NCBI GenBank assembly: GCA_034420695.1
Contig: DAOULB010000002.1
Location: 151,644 to 215,643 of the forward strand
Origin: Dehalococcoidia bacterium
Lineage (GTDB): Bacteria; Chloroflexota; Dehalococcoidia; Lucifugimonadales; UBA3495
DNA length: 64,000 nucleotides
Direction: 5' to 3'
In this document: in pieces, positions 1 through 47,658 of the stretch
Numbering within the stretch: the first letter of the stretch is position 1
How the letters are laid out: each line of letters begins with the position of its first letter
The notes under the pieces: model-generated
Databases searched by the model: none
What the model was told of the DNA's origin: nothing
The model's input: the letters and a program-made list of their open reading frames with translations, nothing else
Translations under genes and position numbers: made by a program

Positions 1-1097
1 CCGAGCGGGAGCGGCTGGCCGGCGTGGCGGTGGACGCCGTGGTGGACAGCGTTTCGGTGGCCACCACCTACCAAGAGACCCTGGAAAAGGCCGGCATCAT
101 CTTCTGCCCCATCAGCGAGGCAATCCAGAACCACCCCGAGCTGGTGCAGAAGTACTTGGGCTCGGTGGTCCCCTACGGCGACAACTTCTACGCCACTCTG
201 AACTCGGCGGTGTTCAGCGACGGTTCATTTGCCTACATCCCCAAGGGAGTCCGCTGTCCCATCGAGTTGATGACCTACTTCCGCATCAACCAAGCCGATT
301 CCGGGCAGTTCGAACGCACCTTGATCATTGCGGACGAAGGCAGCTACGTCAGCTACTTGGAAGGATGCACCGCCCCGGCCCGGAAGACCCACCAGCTTCA
401 CGCTGCCGTGGTGGAACTGGTGGCCCTGGAAGACGCCGAGATCAAGTACTCCACGCTGCAGAACTGGTTCCCCGGCGATAAGGAGGGCCAAGGCGGCGTC
501 TACAACTTTGTCACCAAGCGGGGCAAGGCCAAGGGCAGGAACTCCAAGATTTCCTGGACCCAGGTGGAGACGGGGTCAGCCATCACTTGGAAGTACCCCA
601 GCGTTGTGCTGGAAGGCGACAACTCCGTCGGCGAGTTCTACTCGGTGGCCTTGGTCAACAACCATCAGCAGGCCGACACCGGCACCAAGATGTTCCACTT
701 GGGCAAGAACACCCGGAGCACCATCGTCGCCAAGGGCATCTCCGCCGGCCAAGGCAACTCCACCTACCGCGGGCTGGTCAAGGTCAACCCCTCGGCCGAC
801 GGCGCCCGGAACTTCACCCAGTGCGACTCGCTGCTCATCGGGGACCGGTGCGGCGCCCACACCGTCCCCTACATCGAGGTGCGGAACCCTACGGCCCAGC
901 TGGAGCACGAGGCCTCCACCTCCAAGGTCAGCGACGAGCAGCTCTTCTACTGCCAGCAGCGGGGCATCTCCGTGGAGGACGCCCACCACATGATAATCAA
1001 CGGCTTCTGCCGGGGCATCTTCCAGGAACTCCCCTTCGAATTCGCTATGGAAGCTTCCCAGCTCCTCAAAGTAAGCCTGGAAGGAGCGGTAGGGTAA
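1..1097 (+). CDS. sufB: Fe-S cluster assembly protein SufB (C-terminal part; 5' end lies outside the window)
   Basis: The reading frame of ORF 24..1097 is open to the window edge. It contains the conserved SufB region ...[28 protein letters not shown]...[20 protein letters not shown]...STYRGLVKV...[22 protein letters not shown]. sufC, sufD, sufS and sufU follow on the same strand. Confidence 0.95.
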
Positions 1098-1180
1098 AAG
1101 GCGAATTGAAATCAAGATCATCAGAAACAGATGATTCGGAGAAAGGAGCCCGACAACAAATCTCCAAATGGGGATTTGGG

Positions 1181-2179
1181 ATGGCCCCGATTTCATCGCG
1201 CATGGAGACGAGATATACCACTGCATCGCACGCCATGTTAGAGGCGCTGCGAGGAACAACTGATATCGCCGAACTTGATCTGGACGCAGTTAGCGAAGTC
1301 AAAGGCATGTTTAATCGTTGTGTTCGCCAAGACCAGTGGGATTGGTTTAGCGTTCATACTAGACTCGGGCGTCCACATCTCCCCCAAATGCGCAGCATTG
1401 CTAGAGATTTGGACAATCTTCGCAAGTCGTTAAAGTTGGGAAATGACACATCCGCTCGAAACCACGTCGCTTCATTGGTTAGCAATAACCTTCACACCCT
1501 ACTGACAAATTACACTTCTCAACCAACTCATCTAAAGGGGTCTCAAGATTCTGGCTGGGTGTACATTTTGTCAACTCGTAAGCAACCTAACTACCTAAAA
1601 ATAGGAATGACTCACCGTCCCGTAGAGGATAGGGTCAAGGAAATCAATTCAGCGACGGGAGTTCTATTTCCATATTCTGTGCGTGCTGCCTTCCCTGTGA
1701 AGGATGCGAAGGTTGCTGAGAAGGCGGTTTTTGAGAGTCTTGAGGATTTTAGAGTAAGGGCTGATAGGGAATTCTTCGAGATCGATTTTGGGGAAGCGGC
1801 AAGAATCGTGCGGCAGGTCCTACACGAAGGTGGGATGATAGAACGCCCGAAGGGCAAAATCTCTTGGTTCGACAAGAAGAAAGGGTATGGACTCATAAAC
1901 ACATCTAATGGGGTGGATGTATTCCTTCATCATTCCCGGATTTCTAGGGCAAACACGGAGTTCTTGAGTGAGGGAACAACGGTTGAGTTTGACCTAGAAG
2001 TTACAGAGAGAGGACTAGCTGCCCTAAATGTAAAACTGTTGCCAGAACAGTTTGCTTTGCAAGAAGAAGACGAGGTGCCCGCGACGGCGCTGCTCAGTGA
2101 AGCCGCTCTAGCTGATGACTGGCTTAGTCCGGAAGAGGAAGAGGCATGGGCCCACTTGAAGGATCTGCCGTCGTTATAA
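1181..2179 (+). CDS. T5orf172 (MUG113, GIY-YIG-like) domain protein fused to a cold-shock domain, with an unknown N-terminal region of about 130 aa and an acidic C-terminal tail
   Basis: This is the in-frame ATG at 1181 of ORF 587..2179; the upstream part of that ORF is out-of-frame overlap with sufB. GWVYILSTRKQPNYLKIGMTHRPVEDRVKEINSATGV...REFFEIDF matches the T5orf172 pattern. GKISWFDKKKGYGLINTSNGVDVFLHHSRI matches the CSD RNP1/RNP2 motifs. The segment is visibly AT-richer (one sampled line is 47% GC). The start is uncertain; an alternative ATG is at 1202. Confidence 0.75.
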   Translation: MAPISSRMETRYTTASHAMLEALRGTTDIAELDLDAVSEVKGMFNRCVRQDQWDWFSVHTRLGRPHLPQMRSIARDLDNLRKSLKLGNDTSARNHVASLVSNNLHTLLTNYTSQPTHLKGSQDSGWVYILSTRKQPNYLKIGMTHRPVEDRVKEINSATGVLFPYSVRAAFPVKDAKVAEKAVFESLEDFRVRADREFFEIDFGEAARIVRQVLHEGGMIERPKGKISWFDKKKGYGLINTSNGVDVFLHHSRISRANTEFLSEGTTVEFDLEVTERGLAALNVKLLPEQFALQEEDEVPATALLSEAALADDWLSPEEEEAWAHLKDLPSL

Positions 2180-2285
2180 CGAGGTTCCCTTTCTCTAACT
2201 TATCCAGTCAGACCCTCAGGCCCGCCGTGGTTTTAGCCAGGACGGACTTGGGCGATTGGATTTTGGGACTAAGTCAAAGCCGAAA

Positions 2286-3068
2286 ATGACGACAAACGGC
2301 GATAATCAACCGCTACTTTCAGTCAGAGGCCTCCACGTCTCCGCCGGCGACCTAGCCATCCTGCGCGGGGTGGACCTCACGGTAAATGCCGGCGAAGTCC
2401 ACGCCATCATGGGGCCCAACGGCTCCGGCAAGAGCACCCTGGCCAACGTCCTGGCCGGACGCCCCGATTACACCGTGACCCAAGGCTCAGTTATCTACCA
2501 AGGCGAAGACCTCCTGGCCATGGAGCCGGAGGAGCGGGCCCGGTGGGGCGTTTTCCTGGCGTTTCAGTACCCGATAGAGCTCCCCGGCGTCAGGGATTGG
2601 CAGTTCCTCAAAGCGGCGGTGGACGCCCAGCGGCAGCACCGGGGCGAAGAGGAGATGGGAGCCCGTGAGTTCGACCGGCTGCTGCGGGAAAAAATAGAAA
2701 TGGTGGAGATCGGTCAGGACCTTGTGCGCCGCGCGGTCAACGAGGGTTTCTCCGGCGGCGAGAAGAAGCGCAACGAAGTGCTGCAGATGGCCGTGTTGGA
2801 ACCGACCCTGGCCCTGCTCGATGAGACCGACTCCGGCTTGGACATCGATGCCCTGCGCATCGTCTCCAACGGCGTGAACCAGTTGCGCCGGCCCGACAAC
2901 GCCATGATTGTCGTGACCCACTATCAACGCATTCTCGACTACATCACCCCTGACTACGTCCACGTCCTGCTGGAAGGGCGTATCGTCGAGTCAGGAAACG
3001 CCGACCTGGCCCGGGAGCTGGAAGCCAAGGGCTACGACTGGATTCGCGACTCCGTGGAGGCAGGGTAG
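2286..3068 (+). CDS. sufC: Fe-S cluster assembly ATPase SufC
   Basis: Walker A GPNGSGKST, the ABC signature FSGGEKKR and Walker B LALLDETDSGLD are present, and the gene lies within the suf operon. I chose the ATG at 2286, which is in frame with the TTG at 2256 used by the ORF track. Confidence 0.95.
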   Translation: MTTNGDNQPLLSVRGLHVSAGDLAILRGVDLTVNAGEVHAIMGPNGSGKSTLANVLAGRPDYTVTQGSVIYQGEDLLAMEPEERARWGVFLAFQYPIELPGVRDWQFLKAAVDAQRQHRGEEEMGAREFDRLLREKIEMVEIGQDLVRRAVNEGFSGGEKKRNEVLQMAVLEPTLALLDETDSGLDIDALRIVSNGVNQLRRPDNAMIVVTHYQRILDYITPDYVHVLLEGRIVESGNADLARELEAKGYDWIRDSVEAG

Positions 3069-3094: not shown

Positions 3095-3310
3095 ATGAGC
3101 TATTGGGTTCACGAAGATAGGCCGACAAACTCCGCGGTTACCCACCGGGGTAGCTGTAGATTCTGCAACGAAGGTCGCGGTCTGCGTAACCTTCCCAATA
3201 CTGCCGAGCGAATGTGGCACGGGCCTTTTGCAGAAGTAAAATCGGCGCGGGCCAAGGCGCGTATTACCAGACGTACTGACGTGCGTGACTGCAAAGTGTG
3301 CGCTCCATAG
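3095..3310 (+). CDS. Small hypothetical protein (71 aa) with two Cys pairs, zinc-ribbon-like
   Basis: The ORF is MSYWVHEDRPTNSAVTHRGSCRFCNEG...WHGPF...CKVCAP, with CxxC near the N-terminus and CxxC at the C-terminus. It occupies the sufC-sufD spacer. No function is recognisable. Confidence 0.5.
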   Translation: MSYWVHEDRPTNSAVTHRGSCRFCNEGRGLRNLPNTAERMWHGPFAEVKSARAKARITRRTDVRDCKVCAP

Positions 3311-3343: not shown

Positions 3344-4696
3344 ATGACGTTGACTGCTTCGCTACACGAAGGATACGCGGCCGGGTTTGAGGCACTGCGA
3401 GCGGCCGCGCCCGTCCCGTCTTGGCTTGCCGAGCTGCGGGCCCAAGGCTGGGAGCGCTTCAATGCCCTGGGCTTTCCAACCGCCCGCCGTGGCAACGAAA
3501 AGTGGAAATACACCAACGTCCGCCCGGTAGCCGCCGCCCGGTTGGAAGTACCCTTGGCGCTGGACCCGGCGCAGGAACCCGCTCTTGAAGCCCTTAAGTC
3601 TGACGCCCCCTGGGACGATTCCTGGGTCAACCTGGTTTTCGTGGACGGAGTCTATTCACCGGCCCTTTCCTCTCCTCGCAGCCTGGGGGATGAAACCGGG
3701 GCCGCCAGCATCGGCAGCGCCCTGAACGCCGGGGACGGACCCTTGCACAACCATTTGGGACAATTGGCTTCGGTGGAAGATGATGCCTTTGTGGCCTTGA
3801 ACACCGCCTTCCTGCGGGATGGCGCCTTGGTCCAAGCCCCGCCCGGCCGGGACTGCCCTGCCGTGTTGAACTTGGTTTACGTGTCCACCGAAAGCGCCCG
3901 GCCCAAGGCAGCCTTCCCCAGGACCTTGGTGGTGGCGGGGGCCAACAGCCGCCTCACCGTGGCCGAGAGCTACGTCGGCCCATCCGCTGGAGGAAATCTG
4001 ACCAATGCCGTCACCGAAATTGTCCTTGAAGAGGGCGCCCACGTCGACCACTACAGTCTCCTCAAGGAGAGTCCCGGCGGCTATCATGTTGGGACCACCC
4101 GGGTGGTCCAGGCCGCGGATAGTTTCTTTGCCTCAACCGACTGTTCCTTCGGGATGGCCCTGGGGCGCCACGATTTGCAGGTAGTGCTCGACGGGCCTGG
4201 CAGCAGCTGCGACCTGAAGGGGTTGTACCTGACCTCCGGCAGCCAGCACATGGACAACTTCATCAACATCGACCACGCCTGCCCCCATACCACCAGTGAC
4301 CTCTTTTACAAGGGGGTCCTCGACGGCCGTTCCAAGGCCATCTTTGGTGGCACGGTGCTGGTGCGGAAGGATTCCCAGAAGGCCAAGGCCCGCCAGACCG
4401 ACCGGAACCTGCTTCTGTCCCGCACTGCCGAGGTGGACAGCAAGCCCAGCCTGCTCATCTACGCCGACGACGTGCAGTGCGGCCACGGGGCCACCGCCGG
4501 CCACATTGACCCGGAGGCGCTGTTCTACTTGCGCAGCCGCGGCCTCGGGCTGGACACCGCCCGCCGGTTTCTGGTCGAAGCATTTGCCCGGGAGATAGTG
4601 GACGCAGTCAAGGTGGAGACCTTGCGGGACTTCCTTAACCAAGCATTCATCCAGGCACTGCCCACCTCCACAACCAATCAAGAGGCCGCGCTATGA
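3344..4696 (+). CDS. sufD: Fe-S cluster assembly protein SufD
   Basis: The 450-aa ORF has the SufB/SufD-fold C-terminal region (...HTTSDLFYKGVLDGRSKAIFGGTVLVRKDSQKAKARQTDRNLLLS...DSKPSLLIYADDVQCGHGATAGHIDPEALFYLRSRGL). Its stop overlaps the sufS start (ATGA). Confidence 0.93.
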   Translation: MTLTASLHEGYAAGFEALRAAAPVPSWLAELRAQGWERFNALGFPTARRGNEKWKYTNVRPVAAARLEVPLALDPAQEPALEALKSDAPWDDSWVNLVFVDGVYSPALSSPRSLGDETGAASIGSALNAGDGPLHNHLGQLASVEDDAFVALNTAFLRDGALVQAPPGRDCPAVLNLVYVSTESARPKAAFPRTLVVAGANSRLTVAESYVGPSAGGNLTNAVTEIVLEEGAHVDHYSLLKESPGGYHVGTTRVVQAADSFFASTDCSFGMALGRHDLQVVLDGPGSSCDLKGLYLTSGSQHMDNFINIDHACPHTTSDLFYKGVLDGRSKAIFGGTVLVRKDSQKAKARQTDRNLLLSRTAEVDSKPSLLIYADDVQCGHGATAGHIDPEALFYLRSRGLGLDTARRFLVEAFAREIVDAVKVETLRDFLNQAFIQALPTSTTNQEAAL

Positions 4697-5952
4697 CTAC
4701 TTCCGGCGCCTCCGGCCCGCGGCCGGCGCTTTCACCTGTTGAAGTCGCCGAAATCCGGCGGGACTTTCCGATACTGTCCCAGACCGTCAACGGCCACCCA
4801 TTGGTGTACTTGGACAACGCCGCAACCAGCCAGAAGCCCCAAGTGGTCATAGACGCCCTGATGGACTACTACACCACCGAGAACTCCAATGTGCACCGGG
4901 GCGTCCACACCCTCAGCCAGCAGGCTACCGAAGACTACGAGGGTTCGAGAAGCAAAATCCGCCGCCTGCTGAACGCCGAAAAAGACGAGGAGATAATCTT
5001 CGTCCGCGGCACCACCGAGGGCATCAACTTGGTTGCCCAGACCTTTGGACGCCAGCGAATTGGCGAAGGCGATGAGGTGGTCATCTCTTCATTGGAGCAC
5101 CACTCCAACATAGTCCCCTGGCAGATTATCTGCCAGGAACGCGGCGCCAGCCTGAAGGTCGTCCCCATCAACGATGCCGGCGAGCTGTTGATGGAGGAAT
5201 ACGAGGCCCTGCTGACCCCGCGGACCAAGCTGGTGTCGATGCTCCATATCTCCAACGCCCTGGGCACCATCAACCCGGTGAAGCAAGTGATCGAACTGGC
5301 CCACAGCCGGGGGATCCCGGTGCTTCTGGACGGAGCTCAAGCCGCCCCCCACATGCCCGTGGACGTGCGGGACTTGGACTGCGACTTTTACGCCTTCTCC
5401 GGCCACAAGCTCTATGGCCCCACCGGCATCGGGATACTCTACGGCAAGGCCGGCCTCCTGAACGAAATGCCTCCCTTCCAAGCCGGAGGGGACATGATAA
5501 AGTCCGTCACCTTTGAAAAGACCCTGTACAACGACCTGCCCTACAAGTTCGAAGCCGGCACCCCCAACATCGCCGGGGCCATCGGCCTTGGCGCCGCCGT
5601 CGATTACGTCACCTCCATAGGCTTGGACCGCATCTTCGCCTACGAGCATGAACTGACGGAGTACGGGACTGGCTGCTTGTCCGGCATCGAGGGGCTGAGG
5701 CTGGTTGGCACTGCCCCGGAAAAAGCGGCCATCCTCTCCTTCGTCATGAAGCAGGCCCACCCCCACGACATCGGCACCATCCTGGACTCTCAAGGAATCG
5801 CCATACGCACCGGCCACCACTGCACCCAGCCCCTGATGGACCGGTTCGGCATCCCGGCCACCGCCCGGGCTTCCATGTCCTTCTACAACACTAAAGAGGA
5901 GCTCGACGCCCTGGCCAAGGGCATCGACCGGGTAATCGAGGTTTTCAGCTAA
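4693..5952 (+). CDS. sufS: Cysteine desulfurase SufS (class V aminotransferase, group II)
   Basis: It contains YLDNAATSQKP, the PLP-lysine region FSGHKLYGPTGIG and the catalytic-loop region RTGHHCTQPLM. It sits in the suf operon. Confidence 0.95.
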   Translation: MTTSGASGPRPALSPVEVAEIRRDFPILSQTVNGHPLVYLDNAATSQKPQVVIDALMDYYTTENSNVHRGVHTLSQQATEDYEGSRSKIRRLLNAEKDEEIIFVRGTTEGINLVAQTFGRQRIGEGDEVVISSLEHHSNIVPWQIICQERGASLKVVPINDAGELLMEEYEALLTPRTKLVSMLHISNALGTINPVKQVIELAHSRGIPVLLDGAQAAPHMPVDVRDLDCDFYAFSGHKLYGPTGIGILYGKAGLLNEMPPFQAGGDMIKSVTFEKTLYNDLPYKFEAGTPNIAGAIGLGAAVDYVTSIGLDRIFAYEHELTEYGTGCLSGIEGLRLVGTAPEKAAILSFVMKQAHPHDIGTILDSQGIAIRTGHHCTQPLMDRFGIPATARASMSFYNTKEELDALAKGIDRVIEVFS

Positions 5953-6401
5953 TGTCCAACTTGGGTGACCTCTACCAGGAAATCCTGCTTGAGCACAACA
6001 GCCGCCCCCGGAACTTCAGGGAACTGGACGACGCCACCGCCCGGGCCGACGGTTTCAACCCGCTTTGCGGCGACCAAGTGTCCCTGTACCTGAAACTCGA
6101 GGACGGCACGGTGTCCGACGCGGCATTCCAAGGCTCCGGCTGTGCCATCTCAAGGGCGTCGGCCTCCATGCTGACCCAGAGTATCAAGGGGCAGACCGTC
6201 GAGCGAGCCCGGGAAATCTTCGAAGCCTTCCACTCCCTGCTCACCGACCCCGGCGCCGAGCCCGACTACGACACCCTGGGTGACCTTGAGACTATGGCCG
6301 GAGTGGCTGAATACCCGGCCCGCATCAAGTGCGCCGTGCTGGCCTGGCACACCATGCGCTCTGCGCTGGACGGGAGCGGCGATTCGGTGACCACCGAGTA
6401 G
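5952..6401 (+). CDS. sufU: SUF-system NifU/IscU-like sulfur-transfer protein SufU
   Basis: All three conserved Cys contexts are present: NPLCGDQV, GSGCAISRASASM and RIKCAVLAW. The start overlaps the sufS stop (TAATG). Confidence 0.9.
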   Translation: MSNLGDLYQEILLEHNSRPRNFRELDDATARADGFNPLCGDQVSLYLKLEDGTVSDAAFQGSGCAISRASASMLTQSIKGQTVERAREIFEAFHSLLTDPGAEPDYDTLGDLETMAGVAEYPARIKCAVLAWHTMRSALDGSGDSVTTE

Positions 6402-6474: not shown

Positions 6475-6939
6475 ATGACACAAGGCCCCGACCTCCCCCT
6501 CAGCGGTCTCTACGGCGACCGCATCCTCGACCATTTCCGGAATCCCCGCAATCGCGCTCCCCTTCCGGCCCCTGACCTCACGGCCAAGGAGTTCAACCCC
6601 TTCTGCGGAGACCGTGTCCTGCTCCAGTTCAAACTGGACGGGTCAGGGAAAGTGGCCCAAAGCTGCGCCGCGGCCGAAGGCTGCTCCATCATCCAGGCCT
6701 CGGCATCCATGCTGTCCTGCCAGTTGGAGGGAAAGTCCCTGGAAGAAGTCGAAGCTCTTTCGGCAAACTTCCGCTCGATGATGGAGGGCGAAGAGTTGCC
6801 CCCGGAAATCTTGGAGGCCTTGGGAGAATTGGAAGCCCTGAGGGTGGTCTTGGCCTACCCCGTACGCATCAAGTGCGCCCTCCTGCCCTGGGTAGCCTTG
6901 GAAGAAGGGGTGGAGTCATACCGGAAGGGCCCGCCTTAG
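6475..6939 (+). CDS. Second SufU/IscU-like protein (tandem paralog)
   Basis: It has NPFCGDRV, AEGCSIIQASASM and RIKCALLPW, the same three-Cys architecture as the upstream sufU. No Shine-Dalgarno is visible because the tandem repeat abuts the ATG. Confidence 0.8.
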   Translation: MTQGPDLPLSGLYGDRILDHFRNPRNRAPLPAPDLTAKEFNPFCGDRVLLQFKLDGSGKVAQSCAAAEGCSIIQASASMLSCQLEGKSLEEVEALSANFRSMMEGEELPPEILEALGELEALRVVLAYPVRIKCALLPWVALEEGVESYRKGPP

Positions 6940-6968: not shown

Positions 6969-7288
6969 ATGGACGGGAAGTCACGGTACTCCAACAACAC
7001 CTTCGTGGAGCGTCAGTGGCGGACGCCAAAGTACGAAGAGGCGCACTTGAAAGCCTGCCCCAACGTCCTGGAGGCCCACAGGGGGATAGAAGGCTACTTC
7101 CGGGTCTACAACGACCAGAGGTCCCACCAGGCCCTCGCCTACCGGACCCCGGCAGAGGCGTCCCACGGGGTACAGAGAGTCGTAGAAGAGAAACCCAACG
7201 AAAGGAAGTGTTCACCGGGAGAAGGCTCAGAACCACTGGCAGTGCACCGGGACTCTCGCTTAACTCTGCGCTAATTTTGTCCAGATGA
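6969..7288 (+). pseudogene. Relic of an IS3-family transposase (C-terminal end of the integrase-core OrfB); 5' truncated and probably frameshifted near the end
   Basis: SMDGKSRYSNNTFVERQWRTPKYEEAHLKACPNVLEAHRGIEGYFRVYNDQRSHQALAYRTPAEA matches the conserved ...DN.FIER.WR.LKYEEVYL...EA...I..YF.FYN..RPHQALGYRTPAEV tail. No catalytic DDE region lies upstream. An alternative frame (7016..7288) ends in ...SLNSALILSR. Confidence 0.75.
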
Positions 7289-7592
7289 CCAGGTACACTT
7301 CATTTTGCCTCCGTCCCCAACGAATCAAACGTGAGAATCTCTATTCACCTACATAAGGGCAGTAGTCCCTTGCCGGCCACAACGGGAAGGTCCGAATGGG
7401 CGGTCAGATTCACAGGCATTGAGCGAGTCGTTGGACCAAGCCGACAAATATTGACAGAACGTGGATGATAATTGGCCCAGAGGCATAGTACCGGACGTAC
7501 AGGTGACTTTGGCGGTGATCAGAGCGAAAGGGAACTTACGTGGGACCTGTCCCTAGGGTTAACAACGGAGGCTGTTCTGTTGTAGGCTAGAG

Positions 7593-7635
7593 ACGGTCCG
7601 AGTCAGTAGCTGCAACGCTAGTGACTCGGCACCGT
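7593..7635. other. Strong hairpin (13 bp with one bulge, 16-nt loop) flanked by TAGGCTAG direct repeats, upstream of dcm
   Basis: ACGGTCCGAGTCA (7593-7605) pairs with TGACTCGG(C)ACCGT (7622-7635). TAGGCTAG occurs at 7583-7590 and 7636-7643. No T-tract follows. Confidence 0.6.
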
Positions 7636-7721
7636 TAGGCTAGTAATACAAACCCCGAGCCAAATTACTCCAAATGGGGTGAATAGCTAGAAGTCCTAAC
7701 TGCCGTTTAGGCGGGAAGCGA

Positions 7722-8903
7722 TTGGATTCGTATAATTATTTTTGCTCAGAAGAAGATGACTCCCCAAAATTAGTGGATCTGTTCTGTGGAGTGGGAGGCC
7801 TTAGCCTTGGCTCTTCGAGAGCGGGGTTTTCGGTTCATGGCGCCTTCGACGTGGATCCTGAGGCTATTCATGCCCACAGCCGCAACTTCCCAGGCACAGT
7901 TCATTTTAACACCGACGTAGCTGGGGTGAAGGGGCGGTCACTCAAGCGTCAGTTGAACCTTAAAGGAAATAGTCTCGACGGGATCGTGGGAGGACCACCT
8001 TGCCAGGGTTTCAGTTCAATTGGAAGAAGGGATCAAGCTGATGCTCGGAACGAACTGTTTGTCGAGTTCTTCCGAGTAGTTTCGGAAGCAATGCCTCGCT
8101 TCTTCTTGGCCGAAAACGTCCCGGGAATCATGCGGGAAAGTTATCGTGAGACTAGGGAGCGTGCTTTTTCCCTCGTCGAGAGGAAATACTCGATTTTGCC
8201 GCCGATGGAATTTGCCGCAAACGAGTACGGAGTGGCCACAACTCGCAATCGGGTTTTTTTCTTTGGTTACCTTCAAGACAGAATGGAACCTCTGACCAGC
8301 GATTGCTTCAGTGCTCCTTCGGACGTGGAACGAGTTTACGTGAAGGATGCCTTGCGCGGATTGCCGGCGAAGATAGACCCGGCATGGCAGACTGAAGAGC
8401 TGAGTTGGCGGACAATCCAGGGTTACGAGGACAGCAACTACGCGGGAAGGCTTCACGGCCATATTCCGAAGGGAGTAGGTGAAGCCATTGCTTTAGAGCG
8501 CCTCAAAGTGTTCAACCAGGTTTCAGGATTCCTCGGAACGAGACATACGCCACGAGTAGCTAAGCGTTACGCAAACACAGAGCAGGGAAAGCACGATGGC
8601 ATCTCAAAATCGTACCGACTCGATCCCGAGGGCTTTTGTCCTACCCTGCGGGCGGGTACCGGTCCCGACCAGGGGAGCTTCCAAGCTGTTAGACCCATTC
8701 ACCCAACAGAAGCTCGAGTCATAACTCCCCGAGAAGGGGCTCGGCTACAAGGTTTTCCTGACTGGTTCCAGTTTTCTCACACAAAGTGGCATAGTTTTCG
8801 CCAAATTGGAAACAGCGTTAGCCCAATTCTCGCGGAGCATATTTTCACGGTCATTGCTGCGGCGTTAGGTACTACAGCTCAAGCGGTGCATTGGCAGGGT
8901 TAA
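7722..8903 (+). CDS. dcm: DNA (cytosine-5)-methyltransferase
   Basis: The C5-MTase motifs are in canonical order: DLFCGVGG (I), GGPPCQGFS (IV), ENV (VI), RVITPREGARLQGFPD (IX region) and QIGNSVSP (X). The start is ambiguous: TTG at 7722 as in the ORF track, or the in-frame GTG at 7773 just before DLFCGVGG. Confidence 0.93.
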   Translation: MDSYNYFCSEEDDSPKLVDLFCGVGGLSLGSSRAGFSVHGAFDVDPEAIHAHSRNFPGTVHFNTDVAGVKGRSLKRQLNLKGNSLDGIVGGPPCQGFSSIGRRDQADARNELFVEFFRVVSEAMPRFFLAENVPGIMRESYRETRERAFSLVERKYSILPPMEFAANEYGVATTRNRVFFFGYLQDRMEPLTSDCFSAPSDVERVYVKDALRGLPAKIDPAWQTEELSWRTIQGYEDSNYAGRLHGHIPKGVGEAIALERLKVFNQVSGFLGTRHTPRVAKRYANTEQGKHDGISKSYRLDPEGFCPTLRAGTGPDQGSFQAVRPIHPTEARVITPREGARLQGFPDWFQFSHTKWHSFRQIGNSVSPILAEHIFTVIAAALGTTAQAVHWQG

Positions 8904-47478: not shown

Positions 47479-47553
<75 letters not shown>

Positions 47554-47582: not shown

Positions 47583-47658
47583 TGGTGCCGAGGGACAGAA
47601 TCGAACTGTCGACACCGGCATTTTCAGTGCCGTGCTCTACCAACTGAGCTACCTCGGC
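47583..47658 (-). tRNA. tRNA-Phe (anticodon GAA), CCA encoded
   Basis: The reverse complement is GCCGAGGTAGCTCAGTTGGTAGAGCACGGCACTGAAAATGCCGGTGTCGACAGTTCGATTCTGTCCCTCGGCACCA. The anticodon loop is CTGAAAA and the T-arm is AGTTCGATTCT. Confidence 0.93.

Follow-up and report, generated by a model that had tools for sequence, protein, structure and literature searches.

The locus described here lies at the left end of a window of 64,000 nucleotides from a Dehalococcoidia bacterium (contig DAOULB010000002.1, positions 151,644 to 215,643), where a gene encoding a T5orf172 nuclease-type domain and a cold-shock domain (CSD) separates sufB from sufC in the suf operon. All features are on the forward strand unless stated otherwise. 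The 3′ part of sufB (1-1097; Pfam SUFBD_core, E=2e-79) runs off the left end of the window and terminates with a TAA stop at 1095-1097, and sufC (2286-3068; Pfam ABC_tran) starts with the ATG at 2286. The interval between them, 1098-2285, is compositionally foreign, with a sliding G+C content (GC) of 0.45-0.49 versus 0.60-0.66 in the flanks. It contains a single intact forward-strand open reading frame (ORF), ending at 2179, with a GC of 0.486 and a GC at third codon positions (GC3) of 0.483; the corresponding values are 0.617 and 0.877 for sufB and 0.628 and 0.805 for sufC. Across the operon, GC3 is 0.88 in sufB, 0.81 in sufC, 0.78 in sufD, and 0.82 in sufS. A preliminary description of this DNA had reported an AT-richer segment parting sufB from sufC, and the GC3 of 0.48 against 0.80-0.88 in these two genes bears this out.

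The nuclease ORF, together with a C-terminal tail discussed below, spans 1106-2179. Translation most likely begins at TTG 1106 rather than at ATG 1181, giving a predicted protein of 357 amino acids (aa) instead of 332, because a KWGFG peptide upstream of the methionine at 1181 is conserved as protein and because TTG 1106, 8 nt downstream of the sufB stop, is the sole in-frame start after that stop. In homologues with longer annotated N-termini, I-x-K-W-G-F-G stands directly before the methionine equivalent to 1181, and in the window ISKWGFG is encoded in frame just 5′ of this ATG. Codons of the KWGFG region differ from those of a homologue on contig L001 solely at synonymous third positions. 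In a sister family, the equivalent FG-x-x-PIS-RM-x-RY is found approximately 75 residues inside the protein. The public gene call (P0002), of 190 aa, is truncated. The start of the 333-aa protein of the preliminary description likewise lies, most probably, some 25 codons further upstream. No forward-strand terminator and no clear promoter were found in the insert, which is therefore probably co-transcribed with the suf operon. Residue numbers below (Y153, R176, E205, W254, and others) refer to the 357-aa protein, whereas Pfam domain coordinates are counted from ATG 1181, in 332-aa numbering.

Three domains precede the tail. A conserved, all-alpha N-terminal domain of six helices (1181-1540, aa 26-145) is followed by a T5orf172/MUG113 domain of the GIY-YIG superfamily (1553-1819, aa 150-238) and a CSD (1850-2035, aa 249-310) with the motifs RNP1, KGYGLI, and RNP2, VFLHH. 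In Pfam scans, T5orf172 (PF10544) is matched at aa 125-213 with E=4.7e-15 and 56.4 bits against a cut-off of 20, MUG113 with E=3e-11 and 44.2 bits against 22.3, and the CSD (PF00313) at aa 224-285 with E=1.1e-16 and 60.9 bits against 27. Both domain assignments made in the preliminary description, including that of a canonical CSD, thus stand at significant profile scores. Within the nuclease domain, Y153, K165, R176, N181, and E205 are invariant in 110 homologues and E179 is at least 90% conserved; R176 and E205 are taken, from motif order, as the putative catalytic Arg and Glu (compare I-TevI R27 and E75, and Odn E180). In the CSD, W254, F263, F273, and H275 are conserved in at least 90% of the same homologues. 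An AlphaFold model made from the 110 homologues is confident, with a predicted local distance difference test score (pLDDT) of 87 and a predicted template modelling (TM) score of 0.77. Its CSD superposes on CspA and CspB structures with TM scores of 0.87-0.90, and its central domain matches viral T5orf172 proteins in a structure search of a viral library; a search of the PDB with the whole model returned CSD matches only, as did a profile search of PDB sequences. The CSD resembles CspE and CspC, although the best NCBIfam Csp equivalog, CspE, scores 56 bits against a cut-off of 120, and the relation to stand-alone CspA-family proteins is at the domain level only.

The best-conserved part of the protein is the N-terminal region, with an invariant SE-KGMFNRC-R-DQWDW motif plus M-x-x-RY. 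Neither this region nor the tail belongs to a Pfam family in the scans made, and searches of the PDB with the N-terminal domain returned generic helical bundles only (best E=0.08, TM score ≤0.46), with no significant fold match. The region of approximately 130 aa that had been described as unknown is a strongly conserved domain and not a linker. No transmembrane segment is present, the maximum Kyte-Doolittle hydropathy over 19 aa being 0.88. Comparison of the gene in the window with the L001 copy indicates purifying selection, the proportion of non-synonymous differences (pN) being 0.196 and that of synonymous differences (pS) 0.741.

The acidic tail (2057-2179 including the stop, aa 318-357, pI 4.05) is what is left of a MazE/PemI-like antitoxin gene, its 3′ end, joined in frame to the nuclease ORF. 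It is identical at 37 of 40 positions (93%) to the C-terminus of P0121, a free-standing 73-aa antitoxin, and a search with the tail alone returns free-standing proteins of 73 aa that share 80-93% identity with it over their C-terminal 40 residues. It is not present in any of 23 aligned homologues, including the 69%-identical P0001, and its GC3 of 0.62 is nearer to host values than that of the rest of the ORF. In three related contigs (L087, L088, and L090), a 73-aa gene lies between sufB and sufC and is overlapped at its 3′ end by a 113-115-aa gene, the stop codon of which in turn overlaps the sufC start (ATGA). The product of the second gene in L087 exceeds the Pfam PemK_toxin cut-off (25.0 versus 23.1 bits) and is 58% identical to that in L088; the intact toxins of all three are mutually homologous. 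This cassette is evidently a MazEF/PemIK-like pair embedded in the suf operon. The likeness of the tail to those of small antitoxin-like proteins, noted in the preliminary description, is borne out by its 37/40 identity with the C-terminus of the 73-aa partner of a PemK/MazF-like toxin. In the window, antitoxin residues 1-33 are missing and the toxin has been cut from 113 to 47 aa: the PemK/MazF-like remnant (2146-2289, 47 codons) has lost 66 internal codons in frame and has kept its ATGA overlap with sufC. No paralogous toxin was found within the 64 kb of the window. On these alignments, the tail is a leftover antitoxin C-terminus captured by the nuclease ORF, and the toxin-antitoxin module in the window is a fossil, not a working pair. 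A separate observation concerns P0023 (383 aa, 14 member sequences), in which an N-terminal PF09720 'Unstab_antitox' segment is encoded in the same ORF, upstream of KWGFG; this appears to be a second, independent juxtaposition or fusion of the nuclease family with an antitoxin.

How the gene arrived can be followed unusually clearly by comparison with L088. This 2.9-kb contig and L089 come from sister samples of one study, and L089 is 100% identical to the window over 8 kb and encodes an identical SufC protein. In L088, an intact antitoxin and toxin lie between sufB and sufC without a nuclease gene, and the suf genes are 96-98% identical to those in the window at the nucleotide level. Alignment by blastn pairs window 478-1093, the sufB 3′ end, with L088 1-616 (98.4% identity), window 2073-2272, containing the antitoxin 3′ end and toxin 5′ end, with L088 762-961 (95%), and window 2274-3067, sufC, with L088 1161-1965 (96%). 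The first 57 bases of sufD (3344-3400) are 98% identical by blastn, and global alignment of 3344-4260 gives 32 mismatches in 917 bases, approximately 96.5% identity. The L088 sufC (1173-1966) is called as two ORFs, with an 11-bp indel relative to the window near 2552, which represents either an assembly error or a disrupted sufC.

Homology with L088 breaks at 1093/1094, inside the final codon of sufB (window GGG TAA, L088 GGC TGA), and resumes at approximately 2072/2073, inside the antitoxin gene, the right junction being placed within 2050-2073 by blastn and MAFFT junction alignments. The segment 1094-2072 (979 bp; GC3 0.47 versus 0.8-0.88 in the flanks) replaces 145 bp (L088 617-761) that comprise the sufB stop, a 26-nt spacer, and approximately 33-38 antitoxin codons. 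The incoming ORF has no stop of its own and reads in frame to the antitoxin stop, which places the fusion point in the protein between aa 313 and 324. No target-site duplication, terminal repeats, or hairpins beyond chance were found at the insert ends, and sufB shows no co-conversion tract, its final 80 bp being identical to those of L088.

In other relatives, the junction is occupied differently. L087 and L090, with SufB 88-90% identical to that in the window, share with L088 the layout of sufB, a 26-30-nt spacer (loosely alignable), antitoxin, toxin, and sufC, and the nuclease gene is not present in L088, L087, L090, or L171. The gene is therefore polymorphic for presence at the sufB-sufC junction; it is neither conserved across the lineage nor of host-like composition, being absent from near relatives and foreign in GC3. 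L001, from a more distant lineage (SufB 86%, SufC 76%, and SufD 55% identical to the window), carries a 69%-identical copy (P0001) at the same sufB-sufC junction, with a homologous spacer between sufB and the gene and a nucleotide alignment that is collinear through the junction, and it is without the toxin-antitoxin cassette. In L001, the nuclease gene is separated from sufC by a 136-aa ORF (2548-2958) with no Pfam match and no homologue in the other loci fetched. GC3 of the gene is 0.46-0.48 in both carriers, whereas host values are 0.8-0.88, and its pS of 0.74 between them is saturated, compared with 0.44-0.55 in the flanking suf genes. Dating of the gene against the suf genes by the synonymous substitution rate was considered and dropped, given the strong codon bias of the suf genes and the saturation of the nuclease gene.

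P0001 is the only close homologue in 5.8 billion proteins and sits at the same junction, and the sub-lineage of the gene represented by the window and L001 therefore appears to be tied to the sufB-sufC site; the donor of the copy in the window probably already had the gene beside sufB. In most of 80 distant genomes, sufB and sufC are neighbours separated by <200 bp, and a few have unrelated inserts; the nuclease gene is in none of these 80 suf loci of GTDB species representatives, in which the best SufC match is 72%. In the sufB-sufC gap of L076 (2711-4002), a 293-aa protein and a 136-aa putative lipoprotein are encoded, and in that of L086 (2842-3939), proteins of 207 and 155 aa. The junction is thus used occasionally by other cargo in these unrelated genomes.

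Very probably, an intact antitoxin-toxin cassette directly after sufB was ancestral to the window and L088 and the nuclease gene was inserted later. This is the simplest history, since under the alternative at least two independent deletions would have had to reach equivalent end points. The lineage thus first carried a mazEF/pemIK-like pair in the sufB-sufC gap, with translational coupling to sufC. The nuclease gene then entered directly after the last sufB codon, at the cost of the sufB stop, the spacer, and the opening 33-38 codons of the antitoxin gene. Having lost its own stop, it now reads into the last 40 antitoxin codons, which form the acidic tail, and the toxin was disabled by the 66-codon in-frame deletion that keeps the coupling to sufC. 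Speculatively, the captured tail may have neutralized the toxin at the moment of insertion. Transfer could have occurred through homologous recombination at the conserved sufB end with an illegitimate right join, or through homing.

Beyond this locus, the protein belongs to a large family. A word-indexed search gave 462 matches. Of the best 120, 118 have T5orf172 together with a CSD according to a precomputed Pfam column, with approximately 86% query coverage and 41-69% identity, and the number of clusters (90% identity) with this architecture is therefore at least 118. Among the source names are 'cold shock domain-containing protein [Pseudomonas aeruginosa]', 'GIY-YIG nuclease family protein [Pseudopedobacter]', and a hypothetical protein from Fibrisoma, so that the family crosses phyla. 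The domain combination had not been recognized as described when the locus was first noted. It is by no means unique, given the 118 clusters that share it, but no paper on T5orf172 combined with a cold-shock domain was found, and none on MUG113 in defence.

The N-terminal domain is more widespread still, being found in 365 clusters at 50% identity, with forms of approximately 235 aa that have no CSD. It is joined to an N-terminal TIR_2 domain in four clusters and to T5orf172 plus a protein kinase in one. In proteins of approximately 370 aa, T5orf172 is replaced by a domain of approximately 190 aa with a D..E.K motif, which has no Pfam match; its best PDB sequence matches are arenavirus PD-(D/E)xK cap-snatching endonucleases, with the catalytic motif aligned, at a weak E=0.02. 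The D..E.K domain is therefore putatively assigned to PD-(D/E)xK. Fusions of the N-terminal domain are seen in P0178, P0179, P0239, P0159, and P0132 and at loci L153, L155, L157, L160, L161, and L169, and some of the fusion proteins have an extra N-terminal extension of approximately 75 aa.

Genomic contexts are heterogeneous, with no partner gene conserved in 22 non-redundant metagenome loci and no gene family occurring more than twice among their 121 neighbour ORFs. The ORFs downstream of the gene in L001 and L002 were considered as a common partner and are mutually unrelated. Type I hsdR lies immediately upstream of the gene in L002 and L172. The two family members found there, P0003 and P0004, are next in similarity after P0001 (approximately 49-50% identity) and directly 3′ of hsdR (L002 2560-3771, L172 2214-4259), and type I restriction enzyme genes are likewise among the neighbours in two of the 22 metagenome loci. 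The family may thus be embedded repeatedly in type I restriction-modification loci. In P. aeruginosa, AIPR and AbiC are near the gene, beside a filamentous prophage, and in L004 a PLD-helicase, ParE, and an MmeI-type enzyme are nearby. Neighbours in the 22 metagenome loci include ThsB, pAgo/SIR2, SduA, PDC-S05, PDC-S30, and PDC-M66B, as well as type I and II restriction-modification, recombinase, and phage tail genes. In each of the six loci measured, the gene has a higher AT content than its surroundings. Apart from the window and L001, every family locus examined occupies an unrelated site, and suf genes adjoin the gene in none of 80 metagenome loci.

Taken as a whole, the locus is best read as a horizontally acquired accessory gene for a soluble, three-domain, stand-alone, conflict-type nuclease, with the insertion history given above, and this reading is held with fair though not strong confidence. 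A function as a defence nuclease, of anti-phage or abortive-infection type, is favoured by a narrow balance, because defence neighbours recur and the N-terminal domain is fused to alternative effectors. The exchange of nuclease folds together with the TIR fusion is the pattern that would be expected of immune sensor-effector proteins. In such a protein, the T5orf172 domain would cut nucleic acid and the CSD would supply binding to single-stranded DNA or RNA, for example phage replication intermediates or transcripts. The N-terminal domain, of four to six helices, would serve in regulation or sensing and hold the nuclease inactive until a trigger arrives; this role is a guess, because the domain has no recognizable fold relative, which itself counts against the reading. 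Other points weigh in the same direction. A defence gene is not usually found inside a core Fe-S operon, in the same orientation and probably transcribed with it; the 69% copy at the exact same junction in L001 could reflect site-specific mobility just as well as recombination through conserved flanks; some family members lie among housekeeping genes; and no full-length member was found in phage (INPHARED, 50,697 records) or plasmid (PLSDB) collections, which gave single-domain matches only. Of the suggestion in the preliminary description that this could be a mobile, homing-type or defence-type nuclease, the accessory or mobile character agrees with the absence from L088 and the foreign GC3, and a defence-type role fits the contexts and fusions, with homing the less probable option.

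Among the alternatives, that the gene is an ancient vertical resident, inherited by the two carriers (the window and L001) from their common ancestor and since lost from L087, L088, L090, and L171, is very unlikely. It would explain the shared position and homologous junction in the two carriers, the 69% protein identity is within the range set by SufB, SufC, and SufD, and the gene is under purifying selection. However, at least two independent and precise deletions would have had to leave the same short spacer between sufB and the antitoxin, one in L088 and one in L087 and L090, and L088, although nearly identical, keeps the antitoxin 5′ half that the window is without, so that an intact antitoxin-toxin pair after sufB would be ancestral for the window and L088. 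Nor has GC3 shifted towards host values in either carrier. The saturated pS, set against that of the flanking genes, points the same way, an argument weakened by the suf codon bias. A free-standing homing endonuclease, which would cut the gene-less or toxin-antitoxin-occupied sufB-sufC junction in related chromosomes and be copied in by repair, is improbable. In its favour, T5orf172 genes are an established class of homing endonuclease genes beside essential conserved phage genes (PMC10448857), the insert is gene-sized and lacks a recombinase, target-site duplication, and terminal repeats, and it is polymorphic between 96-98% identical genomes. Its sole close homologue occupies the same junction with a homologous spacer, with intervening lineages lacking the gene, and both copies retain a non-host GC3. 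Homing would, however, be expected to leave a co-conversion tract, and the end of sufB is identical to that of L088; the right junction is illegitimate, inside the antitoxin gene. No Zn-finger (CapR/DUF723/DUF4397), NUMOD, or helix-turn-helix module of the DNA-binding kind found in homing endonucleases is seen by Pfam, the protein having instead a CSD and a domain associated elsewhere with TIR and kinase; other family loci are at unrelated sites, often in defence islands, with none of the 80 metagenome loci beside suf; and between bacterial chromosomes DNA transfer would be needed as well.

It is extremely unlikely that the product, with an inactive nuclease-like domain, has been domesticated for RNA binding or regulation in the suf operon or is an ordinary cold-shock paralogue. 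Co-orientation and probable co-transcription with sufBCDS, the resemblance of the CSD to CspE and CspC, and public annotations of relatives as 'cold shock domain-containing protein' could suggest this, but the gene is in neither the closest relative, L088, nor any of 80 other suf operons, Csp equivalog scores fall well short of their cut-offs (for example 56 versus 120 bits), the putative catalytic residues are invariant, the family occurs in unrelated and often defence-related contexts, and the composition is foreign. A different question is whether the captured tail is still functional, neutralizing a PemK/MazF-type toxin in trans or acting as an acidic, nucleic-acid-mimicking auto-inhibitor of the CSD or nuclease, which is doubtful. 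MazE-type antitoxins bind their toxin through the C-terminal tail. The fusion here is in frame, a helix is predicted in the model at aa 342-351, and 34 tail codons differ from L088 by three synonymous and no non-synonymous changes, compared with three amino-acid changes in the first 41 codons of the toxin remnant, these counts being too small for significance. Against a functional tail, the cognate toxin is reduced to 47 aa with no paralogue in the window, all other family members are without the tail, which indicates that it is dispensable for family function, and the tail is modelled with a pLDDT of 47-76 and no predicted docking. Quite improbable, too, is an 'addiction-escape' insertion, in which a homing-type selfish nuclease of bacterial chromosomes, at home in the sufB-sufC junction and passing between related bacteria, would have survived invading a toxin-antitoxin site because the captured tail neutralized the toxin until it decayed. 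The preferred reading remains that of an acquired accessory nuclease of conflict type.

Further features were observed in the suf operon and elsewhere in the window. The 275-bp gap between sufC and sufD is filled by orf71 (3095-3310), which encodes 71 aa with a CxxC...CxxC pattern and has no Pfam family and only a weak DUF6233 match. Homologues are present in the same gap in L001 (38% identity) and L171 (P0126, 44%), and the gap is 4-25 bp in L087, L088, and L090; it appears to be a second presence/absence islet in the operon. As orf71 is in both the window and L001, it was considered as a partner of the nuclease gene, and this was rejected: L171 has orf71 without the gene, and no other family locus has orf71. 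After sufS, two tandem NifU_N (SufU-like) genes are present at 5952-6401 and 6475-6939, as in L087 and L090. The region of approximately 6970-8900, after the suf genes, has a GC of approximately 0.50, and gene calls on L089 identify an rve_3 integrase fragment and a C5 DNA methylase there; it looks like another foreign islet. The sole Rfam matches at gathering threshold in the window are tandem tRNA genes on the reverse strand (47482-47553 and 47586-47658).

The family to which this protein belongs is coherent, widespread, and unstudied, coupling a helical domain to T5orf172 and, depending on the member, to a CSD, TIR, kinase, or putative PD-(D/E)xK domain. Such modularity is typical of single-protein immune sensors, and the family is thus a well-defined candidate to be tested for phage defence; it might also reveal how single-stranded nucleic acid is targeted by a GIY-YIG-type nuclease of rather low specificity. 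At the locus itself, two near-identical genomes differ by one gene, the arrival of which would have overwritten half of a toxin-antitoxin module in an essential Fe-S assembly operon and produced a chimeric protein while sufC coupling was kept. This dated natural experiment is useful for the study of addiction-module displacement and of conserved operon junctions as hotspots for accessory genes. There is an annotation problem as well, with the public call at 190 aa and relatives named 'cold shock protein'.

Several known systems resemble parts of this protein. Its last 40 residues are, as in MazEF/PemIK pairs, an antitoxin C-terminal part, with the 47-codon ORF downstream as toxin remnant, whereas in the window the antitoxin N-terminal half and the toxin core are gone. 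In RNase II and RNase R, CSDs feed single-stranded RNA to the nuclease domain; the nuclease fold here is GIY-YIG-like and not RNB. The CSD effector of retron Se72 (type V) likewise has a canonical CSD with RNP1 and RNP2 and is matched with E=2.2e-11 and 43.5 bits, below the cut-off of 82, but no reverse transcriptase or retron RNA is near the gene in the window, its neighbours being sufB and sufC. In PADLOC, the best match of the protein is to PDC-S57 (E=1.1e-22), which no paper found in the library searched mentions. This match spans only profile positions 3-93 of 212, the common T5orf172 domain, which is a further point against a defence assignment, and better fits to PDC-S57 (L159, E=3.6e-30) have a hydrophobic C-terminal half in place of the N-terminal domain and CSD.

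Closer likenesses are to nucleases from phage-host conflicts. SNIPE/PD-lambda-1 is a membrane-anchored defence nuclease with a GIY-YIG/T5orf172-type domain that cuts phage DNA during injection and is toxic when delocalized (PMC13190303). PADLOC PD-Lambda-1 models match the protein in the window with E=1.3e-7 and 2.2e-7, at model positions 351-451, in the nuclease region. Both would represent single-protein defence built on a GIY-YIG/T5orf172-type nuclease, with accessory domains thought to give target discrimination; the protein described here differs in having no membrane segment or DUF4041, a central rather than C-terminal nuclease, and a CSD. Among the putative homing endonucleases of phages, T5orf172 genes form a major class, located beside essential conserved genes (PMC10448857), and ICP1 Odn cleaves a satellite replication origin, a Glu-to-Ala change at the residue equivalent to I-TevI E75 abolishing cleavage (PMC8263062). 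Nuclease activity of a T5orf172 domain has been demonstrated for Odn (PMC8263062) and for SNIPE (PMC13190303). With the T5orf172 nucleases of ICP1 and T5-like phages (putative homing endonucleases, Odn/Gp88, and the domesticated CapR; PMC10448857, PMC8263062), the protein shares the Pfam nuclease domain with Arg and Glu kept, a free-standing gene between conserved essential genes, and a nuclease joined to a separate targeting domain. Those, however, are phage or satellite genes with Zn-finger (CapR, DUF723, DUF4397) or RepA_N targeting, whereas this is a chromosomal bacterial gene with a new helical N-terminal domain and a CSD of single-strand-binding type. The gene is best filed with the stand-alone T5orf172/GIY-YIG nuclease genes of phage-host conflicts, as a new and uncharacterized variant.

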